This document shows, one piece after another, positions 6,516-37,056 of a DNA stretch of 37,639 nt. Each line of letters starts with the position of its first letter. The first letter of the stretch is position 1. The notes beneath the pieces are model-generated. The model was not told where the DNA came from, searched no databases, and saw nothing but the letters and a program-made list of their open reading frames with translations. The position numbers were made by a program, and so were the translations under genes. The stretch spans positions 1-37,639 of the IMG/VR virus record IMGVR_UViG_2585427795_000009. One strand, 5' to 3'. The DNA is from a virus (taxonomy: Duplodnaviria; Heunggongvirae; Uroviricota; Caudoviricetes).

Positions 6516-7034
6516 TCACAGGCCGATATTGCGGCGGTGTTGCTCCAGCCGGTCGACGCCGTTCACCTTCTCAATCATGTTAATGGTGTCGATTTCGACC
6601 AGCTCCTTACCGTCCATCGTCAGCCGGAAATAGGTGCAGACCACGGAGATTTTCGACTCGGTGTCTTCTCCCTGTTTACCCTCGCCGGTGTCGATTTCTT
6701 TCTGACGGCCACGCATGACCACCTCGACGGCCACCGTTTCGCCGGTATCGTCGCGCTGGTAAGAGCCAGCAAAACGAATCGGTACGGCATCCACACCGGT
6801 TGCGGCGTAAAGCTCCCAGATAACCGAATCCGGGAAGCCCCCGAGCGACCACTCCATTGACAGCGCATCGTCATCAAGGCCGAGGTCTACCGGTGCGCTG
6901 CCGTTCATCCCCGCACCGCGATAGTTTTCGAGCTTACGGGTCAGTTTTGGCAGCGTGACGGACTTTGCAACGCCCTGATAGCTGTAGCCGTTCAGAAAGA
7001 CGTTCATTAACTTGAGTTTGCGCGGCATTGCCAT
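6516..7034 (-). CDS. FII: Tail tube protein gpFII
   Basis: 172 aa, synteny downstream of FI. Confidence 0.88.
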   Translation of the reverse strand: MAMPRKLKLMNVFLNGYSYQGVAKSVTLPKLTRKLENYRGAGMNGSAPVDLGLDDDALSMEWSLGGFPDSVIWELYAATGVDAVPIRFAGSYQRDDTGETVAVEVVMRGRQKEIDTGEGKQGEDTESKISVVCTYFRLTMDGKELVEIDTINMIEKVNGVDRLEQHRRNIGL

Positions 7035-7046
7035 CGGTCAGGCTCC

Positions 7047-8237
7047 TTAATTGCTGTTAACCGAGGTGACCAGATTTGCCAGGTATTTATCGGTAATACG
7101 CTGGCGCAGGGTCAGGTTTTCGAGAGGAGGCACCGGTGTATAGTCGTAGTCGATATACAGTTTTCCGGCCTTGAGGGTTTCCGCATCGTTGGATTCTTCG
7201 CTGAACCAGCATGAGCCATCCACGATATAGCCGTTTGTTTTCAGCTCACGGAATTTGGCATTGATGCCGTCAACGATGTCGCGAATCAGCGTTGCGGTGA
7301 TGGGCTTGTCCACCGCCCACATGTGCGCCTCAGCCATCGTGTCGGCCAGCACCTGCGCGGTGCGGGTGTAGTTTTCAAAGAGGAACAGCGGGTCATCAGA
7401 GCAGGTACGGTTACCCCAGAAGCGGAAACCGTCACGGCGAATCAGCGTTGTGACACCTGACTCATTCAACAGGTCAGCATCGGTGCCGGACTCCTGCAAA
7501 TCCCAGAATACAGAGGCACTGATGCCGGTAACACCGTTTACCCCGACGTTGGACAGCGTTTTATGCCAGCCCTGCTCCTGGTCGATTCTGGCACGCAGAC
7601 CCAGCGCACGGGCGGTGGCATACGCGGTGGCGGTGGTACTGGTGACCGTATCCCATGCGAGGAAATCCGGCCAGATAACCATCAGTTCACGCTGGCTGAA
7701 ATTCTGGCGGTAGGCTTTCACCTCGGAAATGGTTTTACAGCCCCATGCGCTGATATACCCGAAAGCGCGCAGCTTCTGACAGACTGATGCCAGTGCAACA
7801 GCCACCTCTTTGGTGTCCAGTCCCGGCACGCCGAGAATACGCGGTTTAACACCAGTTACCGACTCCGCCGCCAGCAGGGCTTTCAGTCCGGTGTACTGAC
7901 CGTTTTCGTCGGTGGTGCCGATGATATTGGAAACGGTCTGCGCGAGTTTCGTTTCCTCGTCGTCGCCGGTGCCGTCTTCCACACGCACAACAACGGTGAC
8001 CGGTTTTGACTGGTCGGCGATAGCCTGCAACGACGCCGCCAGCGTGCCTTTTTTACCGGCCTTTGCAATTGCACTCTGCACATTGGTAATCAGCACCGGT
8101 TTATTGAGGGGGAAGATTTCCGCATCCGCATCGCTGGCCGTGCAGACCATGCCAACAATGGCGGTGGATACGGTGGAAATGACGCGGGTGCCGTCGTTAA
8201 TCTCCAGCACCTGCACGCCGTGATGATAGTCACTCAT
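7047..8237 (-). CDS. FI: Contractile tail sheath protein gpFI
   Basis: 396 aa, synteny, size. Confidence 0.9.
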   Translation of the reverse strand: MSDYHHGVQVLEINDGTRVISTVSTAIVGMVCTASDADAEIFPLNKPVLITNVQSAIAKAGKKGTLAASLQAIADQSKPVTVVVRVEDGTGDDEETKLAQTVSNIIGTTDENGQYTGLKALLAAESVTGVKPRILGVPGLDTKEVAVALASVCQKLRAFGYISAWGCKTISEVKAYRQNFSQRELMVIWPDFLAWDTVTSTTATAYATARALGLRARIDQEQGWHKTLSNVGVNGVTGISASVFWDLQESGTDADLLNESGVTTLIRRDGFRFWGNRTCSDDPLFLFENYTRTAQVLADTMAEAHMWAVDKPITATLIRDIVDGINAKFRELKTNGYIVDGSCWFSEESNDAETLKAGKLYIDYDYTPVPPLENLTLRQRITDKYLANLVTSVNSN

Positions 8238-8566: not shown

Positions 8567-9160
8567 TCAATTATGTAAATCTTTTGTTTTATGTTCTTTA
8601 GCGTATTGTGACAACAAATGGCTATAGCGTTTAAGCAAAATATTAGAAAGATTAAGCTCATTCATGAAGTGTTCTTCTAATAAGTAACCATCAATATCAA
8701 CTTTAATATCATTACCACTTTTCATCTTCTGTAACGTAGATTTTACACGCTCCAGCAGGATGCTTTGCTCATGGTAATAGTCCATAAGAAGAGTAACATC
8801 CTCTTTATCAAGCTTACTTAATTCGCTGAAGTAGGATTTAAACACTTTATCAGTCTGGTTTAATGCAATCTGTAAGCGAGGCCCCCCTAATGATTTGACA
8901 TTAATGGCAAAAGGCTCGCCAACAAAATGCTCCGAATTTTCGTCAAAGCCAATATGTCTCGTTTTATCAAGAAAAGTGAGAGCGCGATGGTTATTAGCGA
9001 TTTCATATGCAAACATTGTTCTGATACTGTCCCTCTCAGCCTCCATGCTTATATCATCACGATGATTTGTATAAAATATATTTCCAACAAAGAGAACCAT
9101 AGCAAGAATCACTGAACTTGCCTCCCAGTTAATATTTTTTAATCGTCGCTTAGTAAACAT
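8567..9160 (-). CDS. Hypothetical membrane-anchored protein, AT-rich cargo gene in the Z/fun slot
   Basis: 197-aa ORF with ATG start and AAGGTG SD 6 nt upstream; one N-terminal hydrophobic helix (SSVILAMVLFVGNIFY); clearly lower GC than flanking G and FI; no recognisable motifs. Confidence 0.6.
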   Translation of the reverse strand: MFTKRRLKNINWEASSVILAMVLFVGNIFYTNHRDDISMEAERDSIRTMFAYEIANNHRALTFLDKTRHIGFDENSEHFVGEPFAINVKSLGGPRLQIALNQTDKVFKSYFSELSKLDKEDVTLLMDYYHEQSILLERVKSTLQKMKSGNDIKVDIDGYLLEEHFMNELNLSNILLKRYSHLLSQYAKEHKTKDLHN

Positions 9161-14644: not shown

Positions 14645-15430
14645 ATGGTCAGCTATAATGTGACTAATGTGTGGGAGCTAATCGTTTTTTTCCTTTGTAG
14701 CTTTGCAGTATTAGCATTTTTTAGCTTTGGTAAAAGTAACCTTATGAGGCTTATTGCACATTATTTCAATTTTGGATATTCAGACAAAAAATTAAAAAGA
14801 CTTGACCGCGAGTGGCGCGACATTCAACTATTTAAAATAATTAACGGAATCAATGTATCAGGCATTGAAAATGTGAGAATGATACAGCAGGGACTGATTG
14901 ATGGAAAACTAAAAACATCGTATTTTTTCCTTACTCGCATCTGGGGTGACATAACAAAGCCACCACACATAATTAAAACAATAATTGTAATTCTGGCCAG
15001 TATTTTTTACATTCTTCTCGCATGTTACATACACAACGAACAATCCGTTATAGTAAGGGATGCCATAGGCATACCATATAAAAACATGATGTACTATGTT
15101 TATAGTGACAAAGTTCTTTTATCCTTCAAAAATAAAGCAGTTGAATTTAATAAAACTTATAGCCTTGCCGATTGCAAGAGACTGCAAAACGTATTTATAA
15201 AAGACACACTTCCTGAGATCGCCTGCAATAAGCTCTTACAGCTAAACGAGGAGGACTCCGAATGGTTAAGTCAGGAGATTAAAGATAATAACAGTCACAA
15301 AAAAGCATTATTAATACTATCCCTCGTCTATTTCACTTCAGGTCTGGTTATATTCCTGTCATATACAAAATTCTTTTACGCCAATAAGAAGGTTTTAGAA
15401 TACAAAGCATCAAATAAAAATCACTCATAA
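14645..15430 (+). CDS. Hypothetical multi-pass membrane protein, AT-rich cargo gene in the orf30 slot between S and V
   Basis: 261-aa ORF with strong SD (AAGGAGAGCGTAATG); opposite strand to the late operon; three hydrophobic helices (LIVFFLCSFAVLAFFSF, IIKTIIVILASIFYILLACYI, ALLILSLVYFTSGLVIFLSY); much lower GC than neighbours. Confidence 0.65.
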   Translation: MVSYNVTNVWELIVFFLCSFAVLAFFSFGKSNLMRLIAHYFNFGYSDKKLKRLDREWRDIQLFKIINGINVSGIENVRMIQQGLIDGKLKTSYFFLTRIWGDITKPPHIIKTIIVILASIFYILLACYIHNEQSVIVRDAIGIPYKNMMYYVYSDKVLLSFKNKAVEFNKTYSLADCKRLQNVFIKDTLPEIACNKLLQLNEEDSEWLSQEIKDNNSHKKALLILSLVYFTSGLVIFLSYTKFFYANKKVLEYKASNKNHS

Positions 15431-24487: not shown

Positions 24488-24729
24488 GTAAATATATAAA
24501 GTTGGCGGAATGCAATCCCGCCAACTTAACTATATATGCGTATTTTCATGAAAGGAGATCACTCAATAACTTCCATCGAGATCGGGTAATAACATTTGAA
24601 CAGATCGCTGAATAACATCGATGGAGATCACTTTTGACTCATTTTGTTATTCAGTGATCTCCATCAATGTTATTGGAACTTCACAGGTGTGTTGATCTGT
24701 ATCTTTTGCCATTCCGGTAAAGGATACCT

Positions 24730-26271
24730 ATGCCAACAGTTCCAATTTCTATGAGAAAACTTAAAGAAATTCTTAGGCTTAAATACGGTGTTGGACTCAG
24801 CCATCGACAAATTGGTCGTAGTCTTGCAATCTCCCCTTCCGTTGTATCCAGATATGCTAATCGGGCGGCTCAACTTGGCATAAAGCAGTGGCCCTTACCT
24901 ACAGGATGGGATGATACAAAACTAAAACATGCGTTCCTTCAGACCCAGGTTAAGATGAAGAAGCACTCTCTGCCTGACTGGGCTACAGTACACCGGGAAC
25001 TGCGTAATAAATGCGTGACGCTGCAGCTACTCTGGGAAGAATACTGTGAGCGTAATCCAGGCGGTTTTTACAGCTATAACCATTACTGCCGGATGTACCG
25101 TGAATGGCTCAAAACCACTTCACCATCAATGCGTCAGGTACATAAAGCTGGCGAAAAACTTTTCGTTGATTACTGTGGACCTACCGTTGGCGTTACCGAC
25201 CCTGAGACCGGAGAAATAAGAACTGCTCAGGTCATCGTAGCTGTTCTCGGGGCATCAAGTTACACATGGGCAGAGGCCACCTGGTCTCAGCAGCTTGAAG
25301 ACTGGGTGATGAGTCATGTTCGCTGCTTCCAGTGGTTGGGTGGCGTTCCTGAACTTGTTGTTCCGGACAATCTGAAAAGCGCCACATCCAGGGCATGTAA
25401 GTATGATCCTGACGTTAACCCTACCTACCAGCAGATGCTTGAGCATTATAATGTCGCAGTTTTGCCTGCGCGGCCACGTAAACCGAAAGATAAAGCCAAA
25501 GCTGAAGTTGGCGTTCAGGTTGTTGAACGCTGGATCATGGCCCGAATCAGGCATGAGATCTTCTACAGCCTTGCATCGCTTAATCAGCGCATTCGGGAGT
25601 TGCTGGAAAGACTGAATAACAAAATAATGCAGAAGTTGGGTTATTCACGTGCAGAACTCTTCATCCAGCTTGATAAACCCGCACTGAAGCCTCTTCCTGA
25701 AGCCAGTTACAGTTACACCCTGGTGAAGAAAGTCAGAGTTCATGCCGATTACCACGTGGAAATCGACAAACATTACTACTCGGTTCCATGTTCGCTGTTA
25801 GGCCAGCAACTGGAAGCATGGATCTCCGGAGAACTGGTAAGACTCTTCAATCAGGGGCAGGAGGTTGCTGTGCACCCGCGCAAGCGTACTTATGGCTACA
25901 GTACCCGCAACGAGCACATGCCTGAAGCTCATCGACAGCATGCCACCTGGACGCCAGAGCGTCTTCTGGAATGGGCGGGGCACATAGGCAGTGAAACTCA
26001 TAGTTATGTGCTTCATATACTGAACTCTCGTCCACATCCGGAACAAAGCTATCGCTTCTGCCTTGGACTCCTGAACCTTCATAAAAAATACAGTAAAGCC
26101 AGACTTAATGCAGCATGTGCAAGAGCTCTGAAAACAAAGGTATGGCGTCTGTCAGGTATTAAATCGATCCTGGAAAAAGGTCTGGATAAACAACCTGTTC
26201 AGGATCCAAAACCAGATCTGTTATCCACGATGGAACACGAAAACGTACGCGGCAGTGAGTATTACCACTGA
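24730..26271 (+). CDS. istA: IS21-family transposase IstA
   Basis: 513 aa; N-terminal HTH (LSHRQIGRSLAISPSVVSRY), DDE-type core, SD AAAGGA upstream. Confidence 0.9.
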   Translation: MPTVPISMRKLKEILRLKYGVGLSHRQIGRSLAISPSVVSRYANRAAQLGIKQWPLPTGWDDTKLKHAFLQTQVKMKKHSLPDWATVHRELRNKCVTLQLLWEEYCERNPGGFYSYNHYCRMYREWLKTTSPSMRQVHKAGEKLFVDYCGPTVGVTDPETGEIRTAQVIVAVLGASSYTWAEATWSQQLEDWVMSHVRCFQWLGGVPELVVPDNLKSATSRACKYDPDVNPTYQQMLEHYNVAVLPARPRKPKDKAKAEVGVQVVERWIMARIRHEIFYSLASLNQRIRELLERLNNKIMQKLGYSRAELFIQLDKPALKPLPEASYSYTLVKKVRVHADYHVEIDKHYYSVPCSLLGQQLEAWISGELVRLFNQGQEVAVHPRKRTYGYSTRNEHMPEAHRQHATWTPERLLEWAGHIGSETHSYVLHILNSRPHPEQSYRFCLGLLNLHKKYSKARLNAACARALKTKVWRLSGIKSILEKGLDKQPVQDPKPDLLSTMEHENVRGSEYYH

Positions 26272-26282
26272 TACGGGATCCA

Positions 26283-27032
26283 ATGATGAATCATCTTTAC
26301 GAACAACTGACCGCACTTAAACTCACCGGCTTCCGTGATGCGCTTAAAAAGCAACTTGCTCAGCCGGGCACATACCAGGAGCTGGGCTTCGAAGAACGCC
26401 TGTCATTACTGACAGCAGAAGAACTAACCTGCCGTGAAAACAGGAAGGCAGAGCGTCTGATCAAACATGCACGGTTCAGACTTAATGCTGAGTTATCAAA
26501 GCTGGATTATCGTAACAATAGAGGGCTGGACAGGGCCCTCATCCGTTCACTCAGTCAGGGAAACTGGTTAACCCTGAAACAAAATATTTTACTGACCGGG
26601 GCCACCGGCAGCGGTAAAACGTTCCTGGCATGTGCACTTGGTCATAATGCCTGCCGACAGGGATACAAGGTCTACTATTATCGCCTTAAAGCGCTGATGG
26701 AACAGTGCTATCAGGGGCATGCTGATGGAAGATACAGCAAACTTTTGACCAGGCTGAATAATAGCGATCTGCTGCTTCTGGATGACTGGGGGCTGGAACC
26801 TCTCTCATCAGAACAGCGTAGCGACCTGCTGGAAATAGTGGATCTGATGTACCAACGAGGCTCAATCATCGTAGTGAGCCAGTTGCCGGTGGAAAACTGG
26901 TACAAAATGATCGGAGACTCCACACATGCGGATGCCATCCTAGATCGACTGGTTCATGGCAGTATCAAGATCGAACTTAAAGGAGAATCAATGCGGAAAA
27001 TACAATCTCCGTTGACCGAAGGAGATCAGTGA
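26283..27032 (+). CDS. istB: IS21-family ATP-binding helper IstB
   Basis: 249 aa; Walker A (LLTGATGSGKTF) and Walker B (LLLLDDWG); AAA+ IstB pattern. Confidence 0.9.
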   Translation: MMNHLYEQLTALKLTGFRDALKKQLAQPGTYQELGFEERLSLLTAEELTCRENRKAERLIKHARFRLNAELSKLDYRNNRGLDRALIRSLSQGNWLTLKQNILLTGATGSGKTFLACALGHNACRQGYKVYYYRLKALMEQCYQGHADGRYSKLLTRLNNSDLLLLDDWGLEPLSSEQRSDLLEIVDLMYQRGSIIVVSQLPVENWYKMIGDSTHADAILDRLVHGSIKIELKGESMRKIQSPLTEGDQ

Positions 27033-27118
27033 AGGTAATTTAAAAACGGTTCTGTGAAAGTGACACGAACCGATCTCCATCGATGTTACTCACCGATCTC
27101 CTTCACGGTAATACGCAA

Positions 27119-27826
27119 CTATATATACTTCCTTTTTACTCTACTTAATTCTATCACTGATGAGGAGTGACAAAATGACAAATTAATAGTATCGATATAA
27201 TCCAAAATTTGACTCTCAACCTCAATAAAAATATTTTTGGGCCCATTACTAATCGATATACCGATTTCATCCAAAACAGCCATCATTTTTCTCTGATGAG
27301 TTTTATATTTATAGTCTTTATTTTCCTCTGTAATATGTGCATTGGCTTCCTCAATAACACATTTGATTCTAGATATTATTTCTAGATAATCTCTCGAAAC
27401 AGATATATCACCGCCTTGCGCTTCAGGGAACATAACCCTATACCATCTAAAAAAATTAACTTTCTCTGGATAGATGCTACTTCTTTTAGTTAACTCAGCA
27501 CTTGCAAATTCTCTAAACATCGTCAGATGACTAGTGTAATTACTATTATTATTATTTTTAACTCCAGCGTTATATGTCATCAAAGCAATCATAACACCAA
27601 AAACGGTAACAAAAGTTGTTATAAGCCATCCAAACGCCTGAAAATACATTACTATACCAGATGTTTTTTCCGCAAAAAATTTTAAGCACTGGCTATCGAA
27701 GCATATATCACGCTCATATAGCTTTTCATTCTGAATAGTTTCAAAAAGAGAAATTAGCGAAAAAATCAAAAAAAGAGCTGACGACACACCGACAATATAT
27801 TTGAGAAGTCTAATATTTGCATTCAT
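27119..27826 (-). CDS. 2-TM membrane protein, candidate effector translationally coupled to the upstream reverse transcriptase
   Basis: 235 aa; two N-terminal TM helices (LLKYIVGVSSALFLIFSLISLF and GIVMYFQAFGWLITTFVTVFGVMIALM) then a roughly 150-aa soluble domain; its ATG overlaps the RT stop (ATGA); AT-rich. Confidence 0.7.
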   Translation of the reverse strand: MNANIRLLKYIVGVSSALFLIFSLISLFETIQNEKLYERDICFDSQCLKFFAEKTSGIVMYFQAFGWLITTFVTVFGVMIALMTYNAGVKNNNNSNYTSHLTMFREFASAELTKRSSIYPEKVNFFRWYRVMFPEAQGGDISVSRDYLEIISRIKCVIEEANAHITEENKDYKYKTHQRKMMAVLDEIGISISNGPKNIFIEVESQILDYIDTINLSFCHSSSVIELSRVKRKYI

Positions 27827-29049
27827 AATGGTTTTAAAGATGCCAATCTAGATTTAAAACACTCCAGTTTTTCTTTAAATGATTCAGAGCGAGTAAGAAT
27901 AATCATCTTATATCTCGTCAAATCATATTTTCTTTTATACCAATGTTTATTTTGATTACCTTTCGAATACGACAACTCTAAACTTTTTATAGCTGCATCA
28001 ATCACAGCAACATCTCTTTTAGATGGCATCGGTTTTATTGCCTGCAACTGTTTCTTGAATGATTCATATTTTTCATGCCCAACACGGCCAAGCTTATTCA
28101 CTCTCCCCATACATCTATTGAATTCTTTTCTGTATGCAACACTTGTTTTTGTGTTATTTTTTGCCGCCAGTAATTTCAAATTATGTATAGATGCCCTGAT
28201 TCTTTTGACTTCATCGGATGGTAGTCGAGGTGAGTCATAGTCAACTCTTAAACCATGTACTTTTATAGGTTCAGATGAACAGTGAAATATTTTAGTTTTG
28301 TGCTTATTTATCGGCAAGTCATGCTCAGAAAGCATCCTCTCTATATGGCTTTGCATTTGAGAAAAATCATAATTACTTATTTTAGATGACACGGTAATAT
28401 CATCTACCAAACGCGTATAAACAAGTCCTTTCCTCTGCGCACGTCTTACCACATCCCCTTCAACAGCGAATAAACACAAAGTTGCTATATAGCTTGATGT
28501 TAAGGCCCCCTGTACGACAAAATCATCCTTAGTACATATATCCACCAAGTATTCAAGAGCCTCATCCTTAATATGCAATATCTCCTCAAACACGCTCCTA
28601 ACCAGATCTCTATGGATATTATCGAAAAAATTACTTATATCCACCTTGAGAACTGTTTTTGCTCCACAATGAGCCTTTGCACATGAAACATAGTCACGTT
28701 TGACATTAGAATTTAAAACATCATTTTTACTGGGAACTGAACCAAACAAAAATGAAGGAAAAACAACCAATTCCTTAAAGATACGTTTATTAATTCTACT
28801 CTGTAATAATCTCATTTTAGGATGCAGGGAGTAGACAATCCGTTTGCTTCCGTCAATTTTGGGAATTTCTTTTAGAGTATATTTCTCATCTAATGGTAAT
28901 TCTGCAATAGCTTTAAGCTCTTCAACAGAAATCGATAAAGCCTTTGACAACTTTTCAAGTGTTGTGATAGGAGCATTGGATTTGCTGTATGGTTTAAATT
29001 TATCCATAAACATACCATTCAAATTCAAAGTTACGTACGGTCTTCCCAT
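27823..29049 (-). CDS. Retron-type reverse transcriptase (start uncertain: ATG at 29049, 29013 or 29007)
   Basis: RT motifs read directly: KRIVYSLHPKMRLLQSRI (motif 1-2), CAKAH-x5-VLKVDISNFFDNI (NAxxH-like plus motif A), QGALTSSYIATL (motif B), YTRLVDDITVS (motif C, YxDD), LPINKHKTKIF (motif E), IKVHGL in the position of the retron VTG motif; about 130-aa C-terminal extension. Confidence 0.82.
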   Translation of the reverse strand: MGRPYVTLNLNGMFMDKFKPYSKSNAPITTLEKLSKALSISVEELKAIAELPLDEKYTLKEIPKIDGSKRIVYSLHPKMRLLQSRINKRIFKELVVFPSFLFGSVPSKNDVLNSNVKRDYVSCAKAHCGAKTVLKVDISNFFDNIHRDLVRSVFEEILHIKDEALEYLVDICTKDDFVVQGALTSSYIATLCLFAVEGDVVRRAQRKGLVYTRLVDDITVSSKISNYDFSQMQSHIERMLSEHDLPINKHKTKIFHCSSEPIKVHGLRVDYDSPRLPSDEVKRIRASIHNLKLLAAKNNTKTSVAYRKEFNRCMGRVNKLGRVGHEKYESFKKQLQAIKPMPSKRDVAVIDAAIKSLELSYSKGNQNKHWYKRKYDLTRYKMIILTRSESFKEKLECFKSRLASLKPL

Positions 29050-29265
29050 ACTCAAGGGTGGAACAGCAGAGATGCTTACATCAACAATTGTCAGCAACAG
29101 CCTCTGCTATCTTTCGACCGTACGTAATGTCGTCGGCTACGGCACCATCGTAGTTGACGACGGTGGGGCCTCGCTGATAGGTCCATAGTGGACGCTTTTT
29201 TGTAAAAGCAAAAACTGACAATTTAATGTTGTTGACTGCCGCATACCAAGCGAATCGCTGGTGCG
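29050..29265 (-). ncRNA. Candidate structured leader or ncRNA upstream of the retron-type RT (possible msr-msd-like element)
   Basis: Non-coding leader with several perfect hairpins (GTCCA-TAG-TGGAC 29181..29193; GCTTTT-N4-AAAAGC 29194..29209; CACCATCG-N7-CGACGGTG 29143..29165) and two interleaved long-range inverted repeats (29031..29040 with 29118..29127, 10 bp; 29081..29094 with 29215..29236). Sequence-only inference. Confidence 0.3.
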
Positions 29266-29271
29266 CTAAGA

Positions 29272-29300
29272 ATAATGCAACAAAAAAATAAGAATTTCAA
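29272..29300 (-). promoter_or_regulatory. Putative sigma-70 promoter for the RT/2-TM operon
   Basis: On the minus strand: TTGAAA (-35), 17-nt spacer, CATTAT (-10); about 215-250 nt upstream of the RT start. Confidence 0.3.
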
Positions 29301-29338
29301 CCGGGTAACTGCAAGCCAGCGACATCGTTTAGCGCGCA

Positions 29339-29357
29339 GTGCTTTCCCCGCCTCGCC
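29339..29357. other. cos site (19-nt cohesive-end sequence of P2/P4 type)
   Basis: Minus-strand sequence GGCGAGGCGGGGAAAGCAC matches the P2 cohesive end as I recall it; flanked at 29357..29380 by hairpin CCGCCC-N8-GGGCGG plus TTTT. Confidence 0.75.
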
Positions 29358-29546
29358 CGCCCGCTTAATGGGGCGGTTTTAATGCACTTGCATTATGTCC
29401 CGCTCCTCAGTGCTGCGCTCCATCCTGATTACAAAAACCGTTATCAAAAACACATGCAAATAGACGCAGTCAAATGCACTACCGCCTCTCGCAATACCTT
29501 CAATTTCATGATAAAAAACATCATCCCTAACAAGAGCATTATCCTC

Positions 29547-31094
29547 ATGAAAAAAGTATATGAACTAACCAGTGAAGAAGCACTGTCATATTTTCTTCGC
29601 CATGACTCCTACACAACCTTAGAATTACCGGCTTATATTAATTTCACCACATTATTAAATGATATTAATTCATCTATCCATAACAAAAAAATTAAAATTG
29701 AACCAACCGCCAAGGAGCTGATGGGTAAAGATATCAATTATGAGGTGCTTGTCAGTAAAGATGGTCTATATAGCTGGCGTAGGATAACACTTATCAATCC
29801 CCTTTATTATGTCTACTTCTGTAGAAAAATCACAGCACCAACAACCTGGGAAATCATAACAGAAAAATTCAAATCTTTTGAATCAAACGACCTTTTTACA
29901 TGTTCAAGCATCCCCGTCAGAAAAGACAACTCGTCAAACATTGCTGCGTCTGTAATGAATTGGTGGGAAGATTTTGAACAAAAAAGCCTTGCCCTTGCTC
30001 TTGAATACGAATTCATGTTCAGCACTGACATCTCAAACTTCTACCCATCAATATATACTCATAGTTTTGAATGGGTATTCATATCAAAAGAAGATGCAAA
30101 GAAGAAAAAAAACAAAAATAACCCAGGGGGATTAATTGACAGCCACATTCAAATGATGATGAACAACCAGACAAATGGTATTCCACTCGGCAGCACATTG
30201 ATGGATACATTTGCTGAGCTTATCTTGGGTCAAATCGATATAGAATTAAGAAAAAAAACTAACGAACTCAAAATAATAAACTACAAGGTAGTACGCTACC
30301 GTGATGATTACCGGATCTTCTCTAATAGCAAAGATGATTTAGACATAATATCAAAATGTTTAGTCAATGTGTTGGGCGATTTTGGTTTAGATCTAAACTC
30401 AAAAAAAACTGAACTATATGAAGACATCATACTTCATTCGTTGAAACAAGCCAAAAAAGACTACATCAAAGAAAAAAGACATAAGTCACTCCAGAAAATG
30501 CTCTATTCAATATATTTATTTTCACTTAAACATCCAAACTCGAAAACAACCGTTAGATATCTAAATGATTTTCTTAGGGATTTATTTAAGCGAAAGTCAA
30601 TTAAAGATAACGGCCAACAGGTTGATGCTATGCTTGGTATTATTTCAAGCATCATGGCAAAAAACCCTACAACGTACCCAGTAGGAACGGCAATTTTCTC
30701 AAAACTCCTCAGTTTTCTTTATGGTGATGACACCCAAAAAAAATTAACAAAACTAGAACAGCTCCATAAAAAACTGGATAAACAACCCAATACAGAAATG
30801 CTTGACATATGGTTTCAGCGAACTCAAGCAAAAATAAACCTAGAGTGGAATAAATCTTATAAGTCAGCTCTATGCGTCCGTATAAATGATGAACTCACAA
30901 AAGAGAAAACATTTTCTGTAAATAATTTATGGAATATTGACTGGATCCAAGGAAAAGAAACGAGCCCCAATAAAGCCAAGATATTATCCTTGCTAAGAAA
31001 AACAAAAATCGTTGACACAGATAAATTTGATAAAATGGATGACAATATAACACCTGAAGAAGTTAATCTATTCTTTAAAGAGCACAGCAATTAA
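29547..31094 (+). CDS. AbiK/Abi-P2-like (UG/Abi class) reverse transcriptase in the old/tin position (start uncertain; longest ATG is at 29382)
   Basis: Motifs STDISNFYPSIYTHS (compare AbiK LDLSNFYHTLYTHS), GIPLGSTLMDTFAELIL (motif B), VVRYRDDYRIF (motif C), GLDLNSKKTEL (motif E), then a roughly 250-aa helical C-terminal domain; AT-rich; the 29382..29546 extension overlaps the cos-flanking region and is probably not coding. Confidence 0.8.
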   Translation: MKKVYELTSEEALSYFLRHDSYTTLELPAYINFTTLLNDINSSIHNKKIKIEPTAKELMGKDINYEVLVSKDGLYSWRRITLINPLYYVYFCRKITAPTTWEIITEKFKSFESNDLFTCSSIPVRKDNSSNIAASVMNWWEDFEQKSLALALEYEFMFSTDISNFYPSIYTHSFEWVFISKEDAKKKKNKNNPGGLIDSHIQMMMNNQTNGIPLGSTLMDTFAELILGQIDIELRKKTNELKIINYKVVRYRDDYRIFSNSKDDLDIISKCLVNVLGDFGLDLNSKKTELYEDIILHSLKQAKKDYIKEKRHKSLQKMLYSIYLFSLKHPNSKTTVRYLNDFLRDLFKRKSIKDNGQQVDAMLGIISSIMAKNPTTYPVGTAIFSKLLSFLYGDDTQKKLTKLEQLHKKLDKQPNTEMLDIWFQRTQAKINLEWNKSYKSALCVRINDELTKEKTFSVNNLWNIDWIQGKETSPNKAKILSLLRKTKIVDTDKFDKMDDNITPEEVNLFFKEHSN

Positions 31095-31100
31095 TATCCC

Positions 31101-31134
31101 AAAGCCATGTTAGTAACATAACATGGCTTTTTTT
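31101..31134. terminator. Bidirectional rho-independent terminator between the convergent Abi-like RT and A
   Basis: Perfect 12-bp stem (AAAGCCATGTTA / TAACATGGCTTT) with 6-nt loop, followed by TTTT on the plus strand. Confidence 0.6.
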
Positions 31135-31198
31135 AAATCACTCATTATCAGTTATCAAGAACGAACATAACATTCTATTCCGAGGAGTTAAATTATCA

Positions 31199-33484
31199 TT
31201 AGCTCCACTTAATATCCGTTATATCCTCCAGCCACTCCTCATCTACAAGATAGGTGAATTTTTTCCCGTCATAATTTACGGTTGCTCCACGTGCCAGCGC
31301 CTCAAGCTCCCATCGCTGCGGCCTGATACCGTTCTGAGCGAGGTCAACGCGGATACGGGTAATTTGCATTCGTTCTGACCGGGTCAGTCTGGCCGATGGC
31401 GCTATTTCATGTGGTTTTAACGGGCTTCCGTTTCTCTGCTGACGACCAGTCGTTCTCAGGCCGTGTTTTAATGCTCCCCTGAGCGCCTTCACGACCTCCG
31501 GGTCATTCCATTCGATAACACCGTCATCAACCAGATTAAGCACTGCTGCGGCGTGCTCAGAAGGTGTGGGAGCTGGTAACGAAGCATCACCACTGGTGAG
31601 CTTTCCACAGTTATTGACAGGACTCCGAGGCGCGGCGATGCCGCTTTTTAAAGTCAAAGGCTCAACGACCGGAACTTTCGGCACAATGCGCCAGTCCGTC
31701 GTTCTGGTGATATGAATATGACGCGCGCCGAGATGCGGCGCGTAAATGCCGACCACTCTCTCGACTTCTTCCTCGTATTCGTTGACGTCATCCGACGGAC
31801 TACGGGCAACCCTGACAATCTGACTATCGCGCGGGACATTTGCCCCGCCCTGCGCGCTGATATACAGCGCAAAATCACCACTGTCTGCGGCGGCGCGTGC
31901 AGCCTCGACGCGCTCGTCAAACTCATCAGCAATGCTGACGCCGCGCGGCAATTTGCGTAGTTCACGGTAAGCCCCCATTGTCGGCAGACCAACCGTTTTA
32001 AATTGCGGGATGCGCCACGTTGACGCCCATGCGGTAACAGCCGCGGCAGTGTCTTTCAGCGGTCTGCCGGTATCATTATCGAGCTGACCATCCAGTGCAT
32101 ATCCGTCGATATTTTTTGAGATGTACTTCGCGATATACCCCGCAGCACCGCCCCGGTTAAGGTGTTTCGCCTGAAAACGGTTTCGCGCGGCTCCTCTTTC
32201 GTCGCCATCCTCTTTGAGCGCGTAGCGACGCATGATTTCAATAATCTGGTTACGCTGGCGTGGATTACAAAAAAGCATCATATGCCAGTGCGGCGTTCCG
32301 TCGTGGTGTGGCTCGACGACACGCAAACCGTAGACCTGTAAATCATTATCCTTGAATGCCGTGCGCATCAGGCTCCAGATGCGGCAGAGATAACGCTGCG
32401 CATCCTTTGGATTAAATGCCTCATCGTTCCAGCCGTGATTAAGCTGAACGGTTTTACTTTCGCCTTTTCTGACCTGACGAGTCGGGTGATACTTTGACGG
32501 CGCAGTCAGCGTGATAAACATCCCCACATCACCCTCTGCGGCGGCGTAACGCTCAATACCGGCAATGGTGTTCATCAGCTCCATCCGGCGAATTTCAGGA
32601 TTAGAAATACTGCCCATCACCTTACTGATAAGGTCGATGCGCTCGCCGGTTTCCCTGTTTTCAAGGTCACACGATTTAAGAAATTCCAGATTTGCCTGGC
32701 GGCGCGCACGCACATCACGAATGGCGTGTTTACTGGCATAAGGAGAACGGTCTTTATTGACCTCCCCGACAGCTATCAGTAACGCTTCATGCCAGCGCAT
32801 ACGCTGGCCTTTAAGCTGATGAGTCCACCACTCATCGTTAAACAGACGGGCAATGGCAGAATATGCCTGCCTCGTGGTTATCTGTCCTTTACGGTATTTT
32901 TTCCAGTAGAGCGGGGAAATATTGAAAGCTCGTGCAGCGCCAGCAACATGACCATACAGGTGAGCCTGAGCCTCATCCGTAAACAGTGATTCTTTTTCGC
33001 CATGCGCATCCACCCAGGCATCGCTGAGTTCCTCATACATCATGAAAAGCTGCGATGAGATACGGGCAGCAAACTTTTTCAGCTCCTTGTCATTCATTCC
33101 CGGCAGGCGCGCATAGTGGTCACGCTCTGCCAGAAACAGCAACGACGCGTCGGTGTTCATTTCATGGCGCTGATTCACACGCTCAATGCGCGGCCATAAA
33201 CGACGCTGAAAAGTGGATGTGAGGAAATAAAACCCGTGTACCGGGCTTTTATTGCGCCGGATGTAGTCATAGCGTGAAGTAAACAGCGAGCGCAAAAAGT
33301 AAGGCAGGCGGTTAATCGTGGATAAAACACCTTGCACCTGACGCATCTCGTCACGTGTAAGGGGTCTTTCGCGCCCGACGGCCTCGCGTGGCGCGTTCCA
33401 TGCATAAGCACCGGTAAACGTCTCACCGGTGCCTGCGGCAAATGCTGACGGAGGGACAAAATGCACGGAGGCTTTAACGGCCAT
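31199..33484 (-). CDS. A: Replication initiation protein gpA (rolling-circle nickase)
   Basis: 761 aa from ATG 33484 (MAVKASVHFVPP...); the ORF track start at 33526 is a TTG extension; size and synteny match P2 A. Confidence 0.9.
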   Translation of the reverse strand: MAVKASVHFVPPSAFAAGTGETFTGAYAWNAPREAVGRERPLTRDEMRQVQGVLSTINRLPYFLRSLFTSRYDYIRRNKSPVHGFYFLTSTFQRRLWPRIERVNQRHEMNTDASLLFLAERDHYARLPGMNDKELKKFAARISSQLFMMYEELSDAWVDAHGEKESLFTDEAQAHLYGHVAGAARAFNISPLYWKKYRKGQITTRQAYSAIARLFNDEWWTHQLKGQRMRWHEALLIAVGEVNKDRSPYASKHAIRDVRARRQANLEFLKSCDLENRETGERIDLISKVMGSISNPEIRRMELMNTIAGIERYAAAEGDVGMFITLTAPSKYHPTRQVRKGESKTVQLNHGWNDEAFNPKDAQRYLCRIWSLMRTAFKDNDLQVYGLRVVEPHHDGTPHWHMMLFCNPRQRNQIIEIMRRYALKEDGDERGAARNRFQAKHLNRGGAAGYIAKYISKNIDGYALDGQLDNDTGRPLKDTAAAVTAWASTWRIPQFKTVGLPTMGAYRELRKLPRGVSIADEFDERVEAARAAADSGDFALYISAQGGANVPRDSQIVRVARSPSDDVNEYEEEVERVVGIYAPHLGARHIHITRTTDWRIVPKVPVVEPLTLKSGIAAPRSPVNNCGKLTSGDASLPAPTPSEHAAAVLNLVDDGVIEWNDPEVVKALRGALKHGLRTTGRQQRNGSPLKPHEIAPSARLTRSERMQITRIRVDLAQNGIRPQRWELEALARGATVNYDGKKFTYLVDEEWLEDITDIKWS

Positions 33485-33749
33485 ATGAGCCAAAAGCCTC
33501 TGAACAACGCTTGCTGAGTTGCTCAACCTGCGCGTTTAAATCAGCAAAAGACTTTGCGCTTCCGGTCAGAATATCGTGATGCATCAGGCCGGAAACGAGC
33601 TGGCTTAATTTCGGGTAATAACCAACCACCGCCAGCCACTCCTGACCGGCGTTTTTACCGCTTTCCGCTCTCTTTTTCTCGTGGAGAATAAACTGAAAGC
33701 TGTCACTGGTAACGACATAACGTTCGCCAATTTCGATACGAATACTCAT
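33474..33749 (-). CDS. P2 orf83-position hypothetical protein
   Basis: 91 aa, synteny between B and A. Confidence 0.65.
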   Translation of the reverse strand: MSIRIEIGERYVVTSDSFQFILHEKKRAESGKNAGQEWLAVVGYYPKLSQLVSGLMHHDILTGSAKSFADLNAQVEQLSKRCSEAFGSYGR

Positions 33750-36042: not shown

Positions 36043-37056
36043 ATGGCAATCAAAAAACTCGATGATGGTCGATATGAAGTGGACATCCGCCCTACTGGAC
36101 GTAATGGAAAACGCATCCGTAGGAAGTTTGATAAGAAAAGCGAAGCTGTCGCTTTCGAGAAATACACGTTGTACAACCACCACAATAAAGAATGGCTATC
36201 AAAACCAACAGACAAGCGACGTCTGTCGGAGCTGACACAGATCTGGTGGGATTTAAAGGGTAAACACGAAGAGCATGGGAAATCTAATCTTGGAAAAATT
36301 GAAATCTTCACAAAAATAACGAATGACCCATGCGCATTTCAAATTACGAAATCGCTTATCAGCCAGTACTGCGCCACCCGAAGAAGTCAGGGTATTAAAC
36401 CTTCGAGTATCAATCGTGATTTAACATGTATTAGCGGCATGTTTACAGCCCTGATTGAAGCGGAGTTATTCTTTGGTGAGCACCCTATCAGAGGGACAAA
36501 AAGGCTTAAGGAGGAAAAACCAGACACAGGCTATCTCACGCAGGAAGAAATTGCCTTACTGCTTGCTGCTCTTGACGGCGACAACAAAAAGATTGCGATT
36601 CTTTGCCTGAGTACTGGAGCACGTTGGGGAGAAGCAGCTCGTTTGAAAGCAGAAAATATCATCCATAACCGCGTCACGTTTGTTAAAACGAAAACAAACA
36701 AACCACGCACCGTCCCGATCTCAGAGGCTGTTGCCAAAATGATCGCGGATAACAAACGAGGTTTTTTATTCCCTGATGCTGATTACCCTCGCTTCAGACG
36801 AACAATGAAAGCAATAAAACCGGATTTGCCAATGGGGCAAGCCACACATGCACTAAGGCACAGCTTTGCCACTCATTTCATGATTAATGGAGGAAGTATT
36901 ATCACACTACAACGGATACTAGGTCACACGCGGATTGAGCAAACTATGGTTTACGCTCATTTTGCGCCAGAGTACCTTCAGGACGCCATTTCTCTTAATC
37001 CGCTAAGAGGTGGTACTGAGGCCGAGAGTGTCCACATAGTGTCCACAGTAGAGTAA
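36043..37056 (+). CDS. int: Tyrosine integrase
   Basis: 337 aa; C-terminal catalytic signature HALRHSFATHFMINGGSIITLQRILGHTRIEQTMVYAHF (R..H-x-x-R...Y); adjacent to the att core. Confidence 0.9.
   Translation: MAIKKLDDGRYEVDIRPTGRNGKRIRRKFDKKSEAVAFEKYTLYNHHNKEWLSKPTDKRRLSELTQIWWDLKGKHEEHGKSNLGKIEIFTKITNDPCAFQITKSLISQYCATRRSQGIKPSSINRDLTCISGMFTALIEAELFFGEHPIRGTKRLKEEKPDTGYLTQEEIALLLAALDGDNKKIAILCLSTGARWGEAARLKAENIIHNRVTFVKTKTNKPRTVPISEAVAKMIADNKRGFLFPDADYPRFRRTMKAIKPDLPMGQATHALRHSFATHFMINGGSIITLQRILGHTRIEQTMVYAHFAPEYLQDAISLNPLRGGTEAESVHIVSTVE

Follow-up and report, generated by a model that had tools for sequence, protein, structure and literature searches.

An Abi-P2 reverse transcriptase gene of the P2-EC30 type in the old/tin position of a P2-like Escherichia coli prophage

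Introduction

Which reverse transcriptase (RT) occupies the slot between cos and gene A of a P2-like prophage, where does its translation begin, and does it act alone or with a partner? The question was raised by IMG/VR record IMGVR_UViG_2585427795_000009, of which the whole stretch of 37,639 nucleotides was analysed (hereafter the window). A preliminary description of the window, made from the sequence alone, had noticed an RT gene of the AbiK/Abi-P2 group at 29382-31094. Here, we examined the identity, start codon, surroundings and likely mode of action of this gene.

Results

Profile, structure and DNA matches identify Abi-P2 of P2-EC30

The ORF listing of the window contained an uninterrupted frame of 570 codons at 29382..31094 on the plus strand, just as it had been described. 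It was AT-rich, as also claimed, with a GC content of 0.31-0.37 in this segment versus 0.50-0.58 in the flanking phage genes. All four RT motifs named in the preliminary description were found in the translated ORF: DISNFYPSIYTHS at aa 216 (30027..30065, plus strand), which covers the palm aspartate region and includes DISNFYPSIY; GIPLGS at aa 266; RYRDDY at aa 305-310 (30294..30311, plus strand), which holds the catalytic YRDD box with the published Tyr282, Asp284 and Asp285; and NSKKTEL at aa 339. Pfam gave only the generic RVT_1 match above the gathering threshold (aa 198-347), and the aa 216 motif lay inside it.

The check suggested in the preliminary description, an HMM search, was run. 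PADLOC AbiP2 was the best profile for the protein (E = 2e-161, 536 bits, profile positions 4-487 of 489). Next came Drt6 (150 bits), UG14 (143 bits), Drt4 (135 bits), Drt3b (131 bits) and, far below AbiP2, AbiK (about 100 bits). PHROG 12132, a profile of 514 positions, aligned end to end (1-514) with the 515-aa version of the protein at 1064 bits. The AbiK/Abi-P2 class was thus borne out, and the profile assignment did not point to any RT class that depends on a partner gene or ncRNA. Retron profiles were marginal on this protein, retron St85 RT scoring 29.5 bits, under its 235-bit cut-off. Retron membership of abi-P2 was rejected on these marginal profiles and on the finding that the msr-msd and effector features of the region belong to a neighbouring retron, Ec48.

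A PDB search matched chain 7R08_A along all of its 541 residues (1195 bits). This structure covers residues 1-541 of Abi-P2 from the E. coli prophage EC30, a protein of 546 aa (Figiel et al., PMC9508834). At the DNA level, 29377-31200 was 99.2% identical to GenBank AM157365, a record titled 'Bacteriophage P2-EC30 proviral ORF570 DNA for reverse transcriptase', and the EC30 and window proteins shared 540 of 546 residues (about 99%). The six substitutions, given with the window residue first and in 546-aa numbering, were T9A, T130A, D214E, N220S, D376N and S382T. The first of them falls in an N-terminal extension that is probably untranslated (see below), two lie in the crystal-disordered loop 214-222, and neither the catalytic YRDD box nor the priming tyrosine is touched. 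On these comparisons we identify the window gene, with high confidence, as prototype Abi-P2, orf570 of P2-EC30, which is a narrower identification than 'AbiK/Abi-P2-like'.

The fold of 7R08 is bilobal, with an RT-like palm and fingers and an 11-helix solenoid where the thumb would be (PMC9508834). Through the 541-residue match, the window protein is predicted to have the same architecture, a thumbless RT with a fused helical solenoid. The C-terminal alpha-helical (alpha-solenoid/HEAT-like) domain would be encoded at approximately 30430..31076 (plus strand), given the identity of about 99% to 7R08, and this agrees with the long helical C-terminal domain proposed earlier. In the published comparison with AbiK, Tyr282 of Abi-P2 is the counterpart of the DNA-contacting Tyr245 (PMC9508834). 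The codon of the priming tyrosine was located at 29634..29636 (plus strand) in the motif PAY (aa 83-85); this residue is Tyr85 of the long ORF, Tyr61 of the published 546-aa protein and Tyr30 of the 515-aa version.

The gene fills the cargo slot between cos and A

An exact copy of the P2 cos cohesive-end 19-mer, GGCGAGGCGGGGAAAGCAC, was found at 29339..29357 on the minus strand (19/19 matches; 0.01 chance matches expected), and it sets the left boundary of the cargo slot. On the other side lay the replication endonuclease gene A (31199..33526, minus strand), as assigned from the ORF list and the annotation of NZ_CP049845. Because the cos 19-mer and gene A bracket the ORF, its placement in the old/tin position was literally correct. 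An intrinsic-terminator-like hairpin with a 12-bp stem and a T-run (31101..31130, plus strand) begins 7 nt past the stop codon, in the interval where abi-P2 and A converge.

Portal, terminase, capsid, A, cox, C and int genes surround the slot and mark a P2-like E. coli prophage. At its left end the window includes the host gene trhP (yegQ), and the integrase gene (36043-37056) lies close to its right end. The segment 27117-31200 matched, at 100% identity, a P2-like prophage carried by E. coli UPEC-245U/190328 (NZ_CP049845), in which PGAP annotates, in order, capsid/terminase/portal genes, the retron Ec48 effector and RT, an 'RNA-directed DNA polymerase', the replication endonuclease, cox, repressor and integrase. 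Identity of the whole window with that prophage was ruled out, since the sequence to the left of 27117 differs by the insertion of an IS21-family element. Two further AT-rich ORFs occupy other variable positions of the prophage, at 8567-9160 (minus strand) and 14645-15430 (plus strand); neither had a match among the defence profiles.

Translation most probably starts at ATG 29547

The start codon had been described as ambiguous among the in-frame ATGs at 29382, 29454, 29508 and 29547. All four are present on the plus strand; the ambiguity was largely resolved in favour of the last. The PADLOC AbiP2 alignment opened at aa 56 of the long ORF, opposite profile position 4, and position 1 of PHROG 12132 paired with the first residue of the 515-aa version. 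PGAP predicted a 1548-nt CDS from the same ATG in NZ_CP049845, NZ_CP134389 and NZ_LR778152. The crystallised EC30 construct, which defines the 546-aa numbering, starts at ATG 29454, and its residue 32 is the Met of ATG 29547; in 7R08, residues 1-31 are invisible and the ordered part spans 32-541 (PMC9508834). A second allele of the family, the EC58 type (orf544 of P2-EC58 and ORF33 of pro147), is 75% identical at the amino acid level, and the similarity begins at the Met of 29547. As these five lines agree (PADLOC, PHROG, PGAP, crystal order and EC58-type similarity), the CDS most probably runs from ATG 29547 to 31094 on the plus strand, encoding 515 aa plus the stop codon. At its N-terminus, this form is 31 residues shorter than both the deposited CDS and the crystallised construct; the longer N-terminus is at least tolerated, as follows from the activity of the published constructs that start at 29454.

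The in-frame upstream extension of 55 codons (29382..29546, plus strand), with its ATGs at 29382, 29454 and 29508, is probably untranslated and would form the 5' flank and promoter region. No amino acid similarity was found between this extension and the equally open one upstream of the EC58-type gene, and aligning their DNA required indels of 3 nt and 14 nt. A GC-rich hairpin with a T-run (29357-29376) abuts cos, and ATG 29382 comes only 5 nt later; ATG 29508 is embedded in a conserved block, TGaTAAAAA, at 29509-29517. That block could serve as the extended -10 element of a putative promoter (29489..29517, plus strand), together with a -35 element TCGCAA (29489-29494) and a 17-nt spacer, and these promoter blocks are among the few that the upstream regions of the EC30 and EC58 types have in common. 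A consensus promoter scan of the plus strand from cos to 29547 gave no site with at least 9/12 matches; the putative promoter is therefore weaker than this threshold, and it is proposed from conservation only. We suggest that abi-P2 may be transcribed from a weak promoter near 29489-29517. A weak Shine-Dalgarno-like AAGAG (29532..29536, plus strand) lies 10 nt before ATG 29547 and may act as the ribosome binding site; the TAA.AAGA block around it is conserved in the EC58-type allele.

Retron Ec48 lies on the other side of cos

Beyond cos, 290-450 bp upstream of abi-P2 and divergent from it, we found a retron that the preliminary description had missed. Its RT gene is the minus-strand ORF 27823..29097, with the start placed at 29007 by profile and PGAP, and it matched PADLOC RT_IV at E = 7.6e-177. 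The adjoining gene (27119..27826, minus strand) encodes the two-transmembrane effector; it matched 2TM_IV at E = 4e-85 and is named 'retron Ec48 family effector membrane protein' by NCBI. These RT_IV and 2TM_IV matches indicated that the neighbour is a complete, separate retron Ec48 (Eco6, type IV), a characterised system whose proposed role is to guard RecBCD (PMC8632793).

A candidate retron RNA was located at 29075-29242 on the minus strand. It was predicted to fold into a multi-hairpin structure with a long terminal closing helix (z = -3.4; none of 200 shuffled sequences was as stable), as expected of an msr-msd RNA with a1/a2 repeats. Other boundaries gave poorer folds: 29098-29338 (minus strand), folded whole, gave no significant structure (z = -0.9), and 29125-29270, which contains a candidate a1/a2 pair at 29256-29264 and 29142-29150, was marginal (z = -2.1) and had no closing helix. 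An Rfam scan of 26500-31500 at E <= 1 returned nothing, retron msr-msd RNAs included. A promoter-like site on the minus strand (29300->29272) lies on the retron side.

Further to the left, an IS21-family element occupies 24537-27117, with IstA at 24730-26271 and IstB at 26283-27032. It is flanked by an 8-bp target duplication, ACTATATA, and splits the short gap that separates the portal gene from the retron effector. NZ_CP049845 lacks this element.

Abi-P2 occurs with and without Ec48

The preliminary description had stated that the RT has no partner gene and no obvious upstream structured RNA. The second statement held: the fold of the abi-P2 5' region was not significant (z = -0.5), Rfam gave no match there at E <= 1, and the region is poorly conserved relative to the EC58 type. 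The first was correct for abi-P2 itself and needed qualification for the unreported Ec48 across cos. We therefore compared the occurrence of the two modules.

Among 5426 complete E. coli genomes, Ec48 was present in 57, EC30-type abi-P2 in 11 and EC58-type abi-P2 in 64. An Abi-P2-family gene accompanied Ec48 in 45 of the 57 genomes, 42 times as the EC58 type and three times as the EC30 type. Phage pro147 has the same Ec48, cos and Abi-P2 layout, with the 75%-identical Abi-P2 allele. Each module was also found without the other. In NZ_CP134389 and NZ_LR778152, EC30-type abi-P2 alone occupies the interval between Q and A, and 18 of the 60 EC58-type records listed had no Ec48. Conversely, Ec48 occurs alone in NZ_CP196251, where tblastn found no Abi-P2 homologue on the A side of cos. 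We treat abi-P2 and Ec48 as independent because each occurs without the other.

The arrangement could be read as one composite system, DRT3-like or new, in which Abi-P2 and the divergent RT at 27823-29007 share an intergenic ncRNA and act together. Two RT genes do stand head to head with a structured minus-strand RNA at 29081-29239 between them, the association recurs in most Ec48-bearing genomes and, with a diverged allele, in pro147, and Drt3b was a secondary profile match of the protein. Such a composite is nevertheless highly improbable, given that the neighbouring RT has the retron type IV match above and is not Drt3a, its downstream gene has the 2TM_IV match, AbiP2 leads Drt3b by 400 bits, and the genes diverge from a cos site that parts the two modules. 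The separate occurrences also count against it, as does the activity of the EC30 protein on its own in vitro (PMC9508834). DRT3 membership, defined by UG3 and UG8 RTs in one operon with a shared ncRNA, was accordingly rejected on profile scores, cos separation and independent occurrence.

With cos between the modules, packaging places the retron and abi-P2 at opposite ends of the phage chromosome. The cos separation, the unequal genome counts, the separate occurrences and the featureless 5' region together indicated that abi-P2 is a stand-alone gene and that Ec48 is not its partner. The simplest reading of their pairing is descent from one successful phage lineage together with recombination at cos. 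The high rate of pairing, and its occurrence with two Abi-P2 alleles that share only 75% identity, may instead be cited for selection, the pair being maintained as a two-layer defence rather than linked by descent; we consider this unlikely. If it were true, Ec48 might fire on inhibition of RecBCD by a phage, the ssDNA of Abi-P2 might be unleashed when phage proteins shield ssDNA from host exonucleases, and escape from one layer would sensitise the phage to the other.

Discussion

The gene between cos and A is very probably explained, as a whole, as stand-alone abortive-infection or superinfection-exclusion cargo in the old/tin slot that encodes an EC30-like enzyme from a start at 29547. The preliminary description had further called it a protein-primed, template-independent DNA polymerase acting in abortive infection. 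Such synthesis and the exclusion of T5 have been shown in published work on the 99%-identical EC30 allele, and by analogy they should extend to the window protein. EC30 Abi-P2 forms trimers, with a dimer of trimers in the crystal, and needs no template to make DNA, its products measuring about 40 nt and >100 nt (PMC9508834). DNA synthesis was lost in the Y61F mutant and kept in Y46F (PMC9508834). This contrast marks Tyr61 as the residue that primes synthesis. As summarised in PMC8632793, which cites Odegrip 2006, orf570 of P2-EC30 lowered the efficiency of plating of T5 by >1e7, and resistance was lost when the YRDD region was deleted; the T5 exclusion is cited from the same work in PMC9508834. 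The assays of Figiel et al. were in vitro only, and host factors may matter (PMC9508834).

On the strength of its near identity to the EC30 protein, we assign the same enzymology to the window protein with high confidence. The enzyme would assemble into trimers, possibly hexamers, and the hydroxyl group of Tyr61 in the enzyme itself (Tyr85 in the long ORF) would prime polymerisation of ssDNA without a template, the product remaining covalently attached. A lysogen would then be expected to block superinfecting T5, as reported for the EC30 allele. How synthesis leads to exclusion may be suggested by two relatives. DRT4 constitutively makes tyrosine-linked random ssDNA that is held down by a host exonuclease and reaches toxic levels once its 3' end is shielded by a DNA-binding protein of the phage (PMC12783706), and phages escape AbiK through mutations in single-strand-annealing (sak) genes (PMC9508834). 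By analogy, a phage ssDNA-binding or annealing protein would stabilise or engage enzyme-linked ssDNA that host exonucleases otherwise remove, and the accumulated ssDNA would abort the infection. We hold this ssDNA-accumulation mechanism to be likely for Abi-P2, with moderate confidence.

One report is not easily squared with an enzyme that works only without a template: RT activity of the P2-EC30 protein was described in 2006, according to the summary in PMC8632793. The enzyme might then be a genuine RNA-templated RT that copies some unrecognised RNA of the cell or a phage in vivo, with template-independent synthesis as an in vitro side activity, and its UG/Abi relatives DRT2, DRT3 and DRT9 are described as using ncRNA templates. 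Several observations make this highly improbable. The flanks of abi-P2 carry no conserved or structured RNA, and the locus thus provides no template RNA; the purified protein synthesises DNA with the template absent, and its thumbless structure has a DNA channel that fits a single-stranded product (PMC9508834). In addition, the class-1 relatives AbiK, AbiA and DRT4 are likewise described as template-independent (for DRT4, PMC12783706). Protein-primed, template-independent synthesis by a stand-alone Abi-P2 therefore remains our preferred reading.

The finding is correct but ordinary, because the structure, biochemistry and T5-blocking activity of an approximately 99% identical Abi-P2 have already been published. 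The gene, its slot, its structure, its enzymology and T5 exclusion are all known from an allele that differs by six residues, and little is added beyond a correct annotation. Of the checks proposed in the preliminary description, most are covered by the literature, namely profile assignment, resistance to T5 and an active-site mutant. The modest gains are the start codon and the recognition that the window prophage combines two RT-based defences, with retron Ec48 on one side of cos and Abi-P2 on the other. As to what triggers Abi-P2 in vivo and how killing follows, the window sequence offers no easier access than the prototype.

Among known systems, the nearest is Abi-P2 of P2-EC30 itself (orf570; AM157365/CAJ43154; 7R08), which is the same gene in the same cos-A slot, with the same YRDD box, Tyr61 and helical C-terminal domain. 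The window allele differs from it by conservative substitutions, and the window prophage adds Ec48 and the IS21-family element on the Q side of cos. The EC58-type allele belongs to the same family, has the same slot and nearly the same length (514 aa), and is also found beside Ec48. It has diverged in sequence, however, its upstream region is unrelated, an additional small ORF separates it from A, and it is the commoner type in E. coli.

AbiK of Lactococcus lactis and AbiA resemble Abi-P2 as class-1 UG/Abi RTs with a helical C-terminal domain that act as single-gene abortive-infection systems, and they too are described as carrying out protein-primed, template-independent ssDNA synthesis. Their hosts and target phages differ from those of Abi-P2, and AbiA has an extra HEPN domain. 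The AbiK profile score was low, the RT domains of AbiK and Abi-P2 are 32% identical (PMC9508834), and their helical domains have no sequence homology. AbiK forms hexamers and uses Tyr44 as its primer; Abi-P2 forms trimers and uses Tyr61. DRT4 (UG15) and DRT6 (UG12) were among the next-best profiles, at 135-150 bits. Both are single-gene, class-1 systems that make random ssDNA from a tyrosine primer, but they belong to different families. In DRT4, Tyr125 in the palm is the primer, the enzyme is a stable hexamer, and both the trigger, phage ORF55, and the antagonist, host SbcB, have been demonstrated (PMC12783706).

Retron Ec48 is the nearest neighbour of the Abi-P2 gene

The nearest neighbour of Abi-P2, the RT-like gene between cos and the replication endonuclease gene A, is retron Ec48 (Retron-Eco6, type IV), which was absent from the preliminary description. 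The complete retron occupies 27119-29300 on the minus strand, on the same side of cos as the portal gene. On that strand, it comprises a two-transmembrane effector (27119-27826), an RT (27823-29007, with the ORF open to 29097) and a candidate msr-msd RNA (about 29081-29239) with a long closing a1/a2-like helix (fold z = -3.4); a promoter-like site runs from 29300 to 29272. A GC-rich hairpin with a T-run (CCGCCCGCTTAATGGGGCGG TTTT; 29357-29376), terminator-like on the plus strand, directly adjoins the cos 19-mer and is kept in P2 itself, and the first ATG of the long Abi-P2 ORF lies 5 nt beyond it. This hairpin may terminate the P-Q operon when the DNA is circular or in the prophage state; alternatively, it may form part of the terminase recognition region.

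An IS21-family insertion sequence (24537-27117), encoding IstA (24730-26271) and IstB (26283-27032), occupies the spacer that separates portal gene Q from the retron effector. An 8-bp target-site duplication, ACTATATA, flanks the element, with copies at 24529-24536 and 27118-27125. The end of the element has matches at thousands of sites in E. coli genomes. The prophage in NZ_CP049845 lacks the element and is 100% identical to the window over 27117-31200.

Two further AT-rich ORFs may be additional prophage cargo: one of 197 aa (8567-9160, minus strand) adjoins the tail sheath gene in a Z/fun-like slot, and one of 261 aa lies at 14645-15430 on the plus strand. They belong to phage protein families of unknown function (phrog_3829 and phrog_2407, respectively), and neither matched any PADLOC or NCBIfam profile.

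Pairing of Ec48 and Abi-P2 across genomes

The loci bearing on the pairing were 27119-31094 of the window together with L003, L005, L006 and L007. Retron Ec48 without Abi-P2 and Abi-P2 without Ec48 both occur. The prophage at L005 (NZ_CP196251) carries Ec48 and lacks Abi-P2; its interval of about 1 kb from cos to gene A (6722-7727, GC = 0.42) contained neither an annotated gene nor an ORF of more than 86 aa, and is apparently an empty or decayed cargo slot.

The order retron Ec48, cos, Abi-P2-family RT was found in 45 of the 57 Ec48-bearing complete E. coli genomes, with the EC58-type Abi-P2 allele in 42 and the EC30-type in three. This recurrent pairing may reflect descent or, alternatively, selection. 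Phage pro147 has the same arrangement, with Ec48 and an Abi-P2-family RT on either side of cos.
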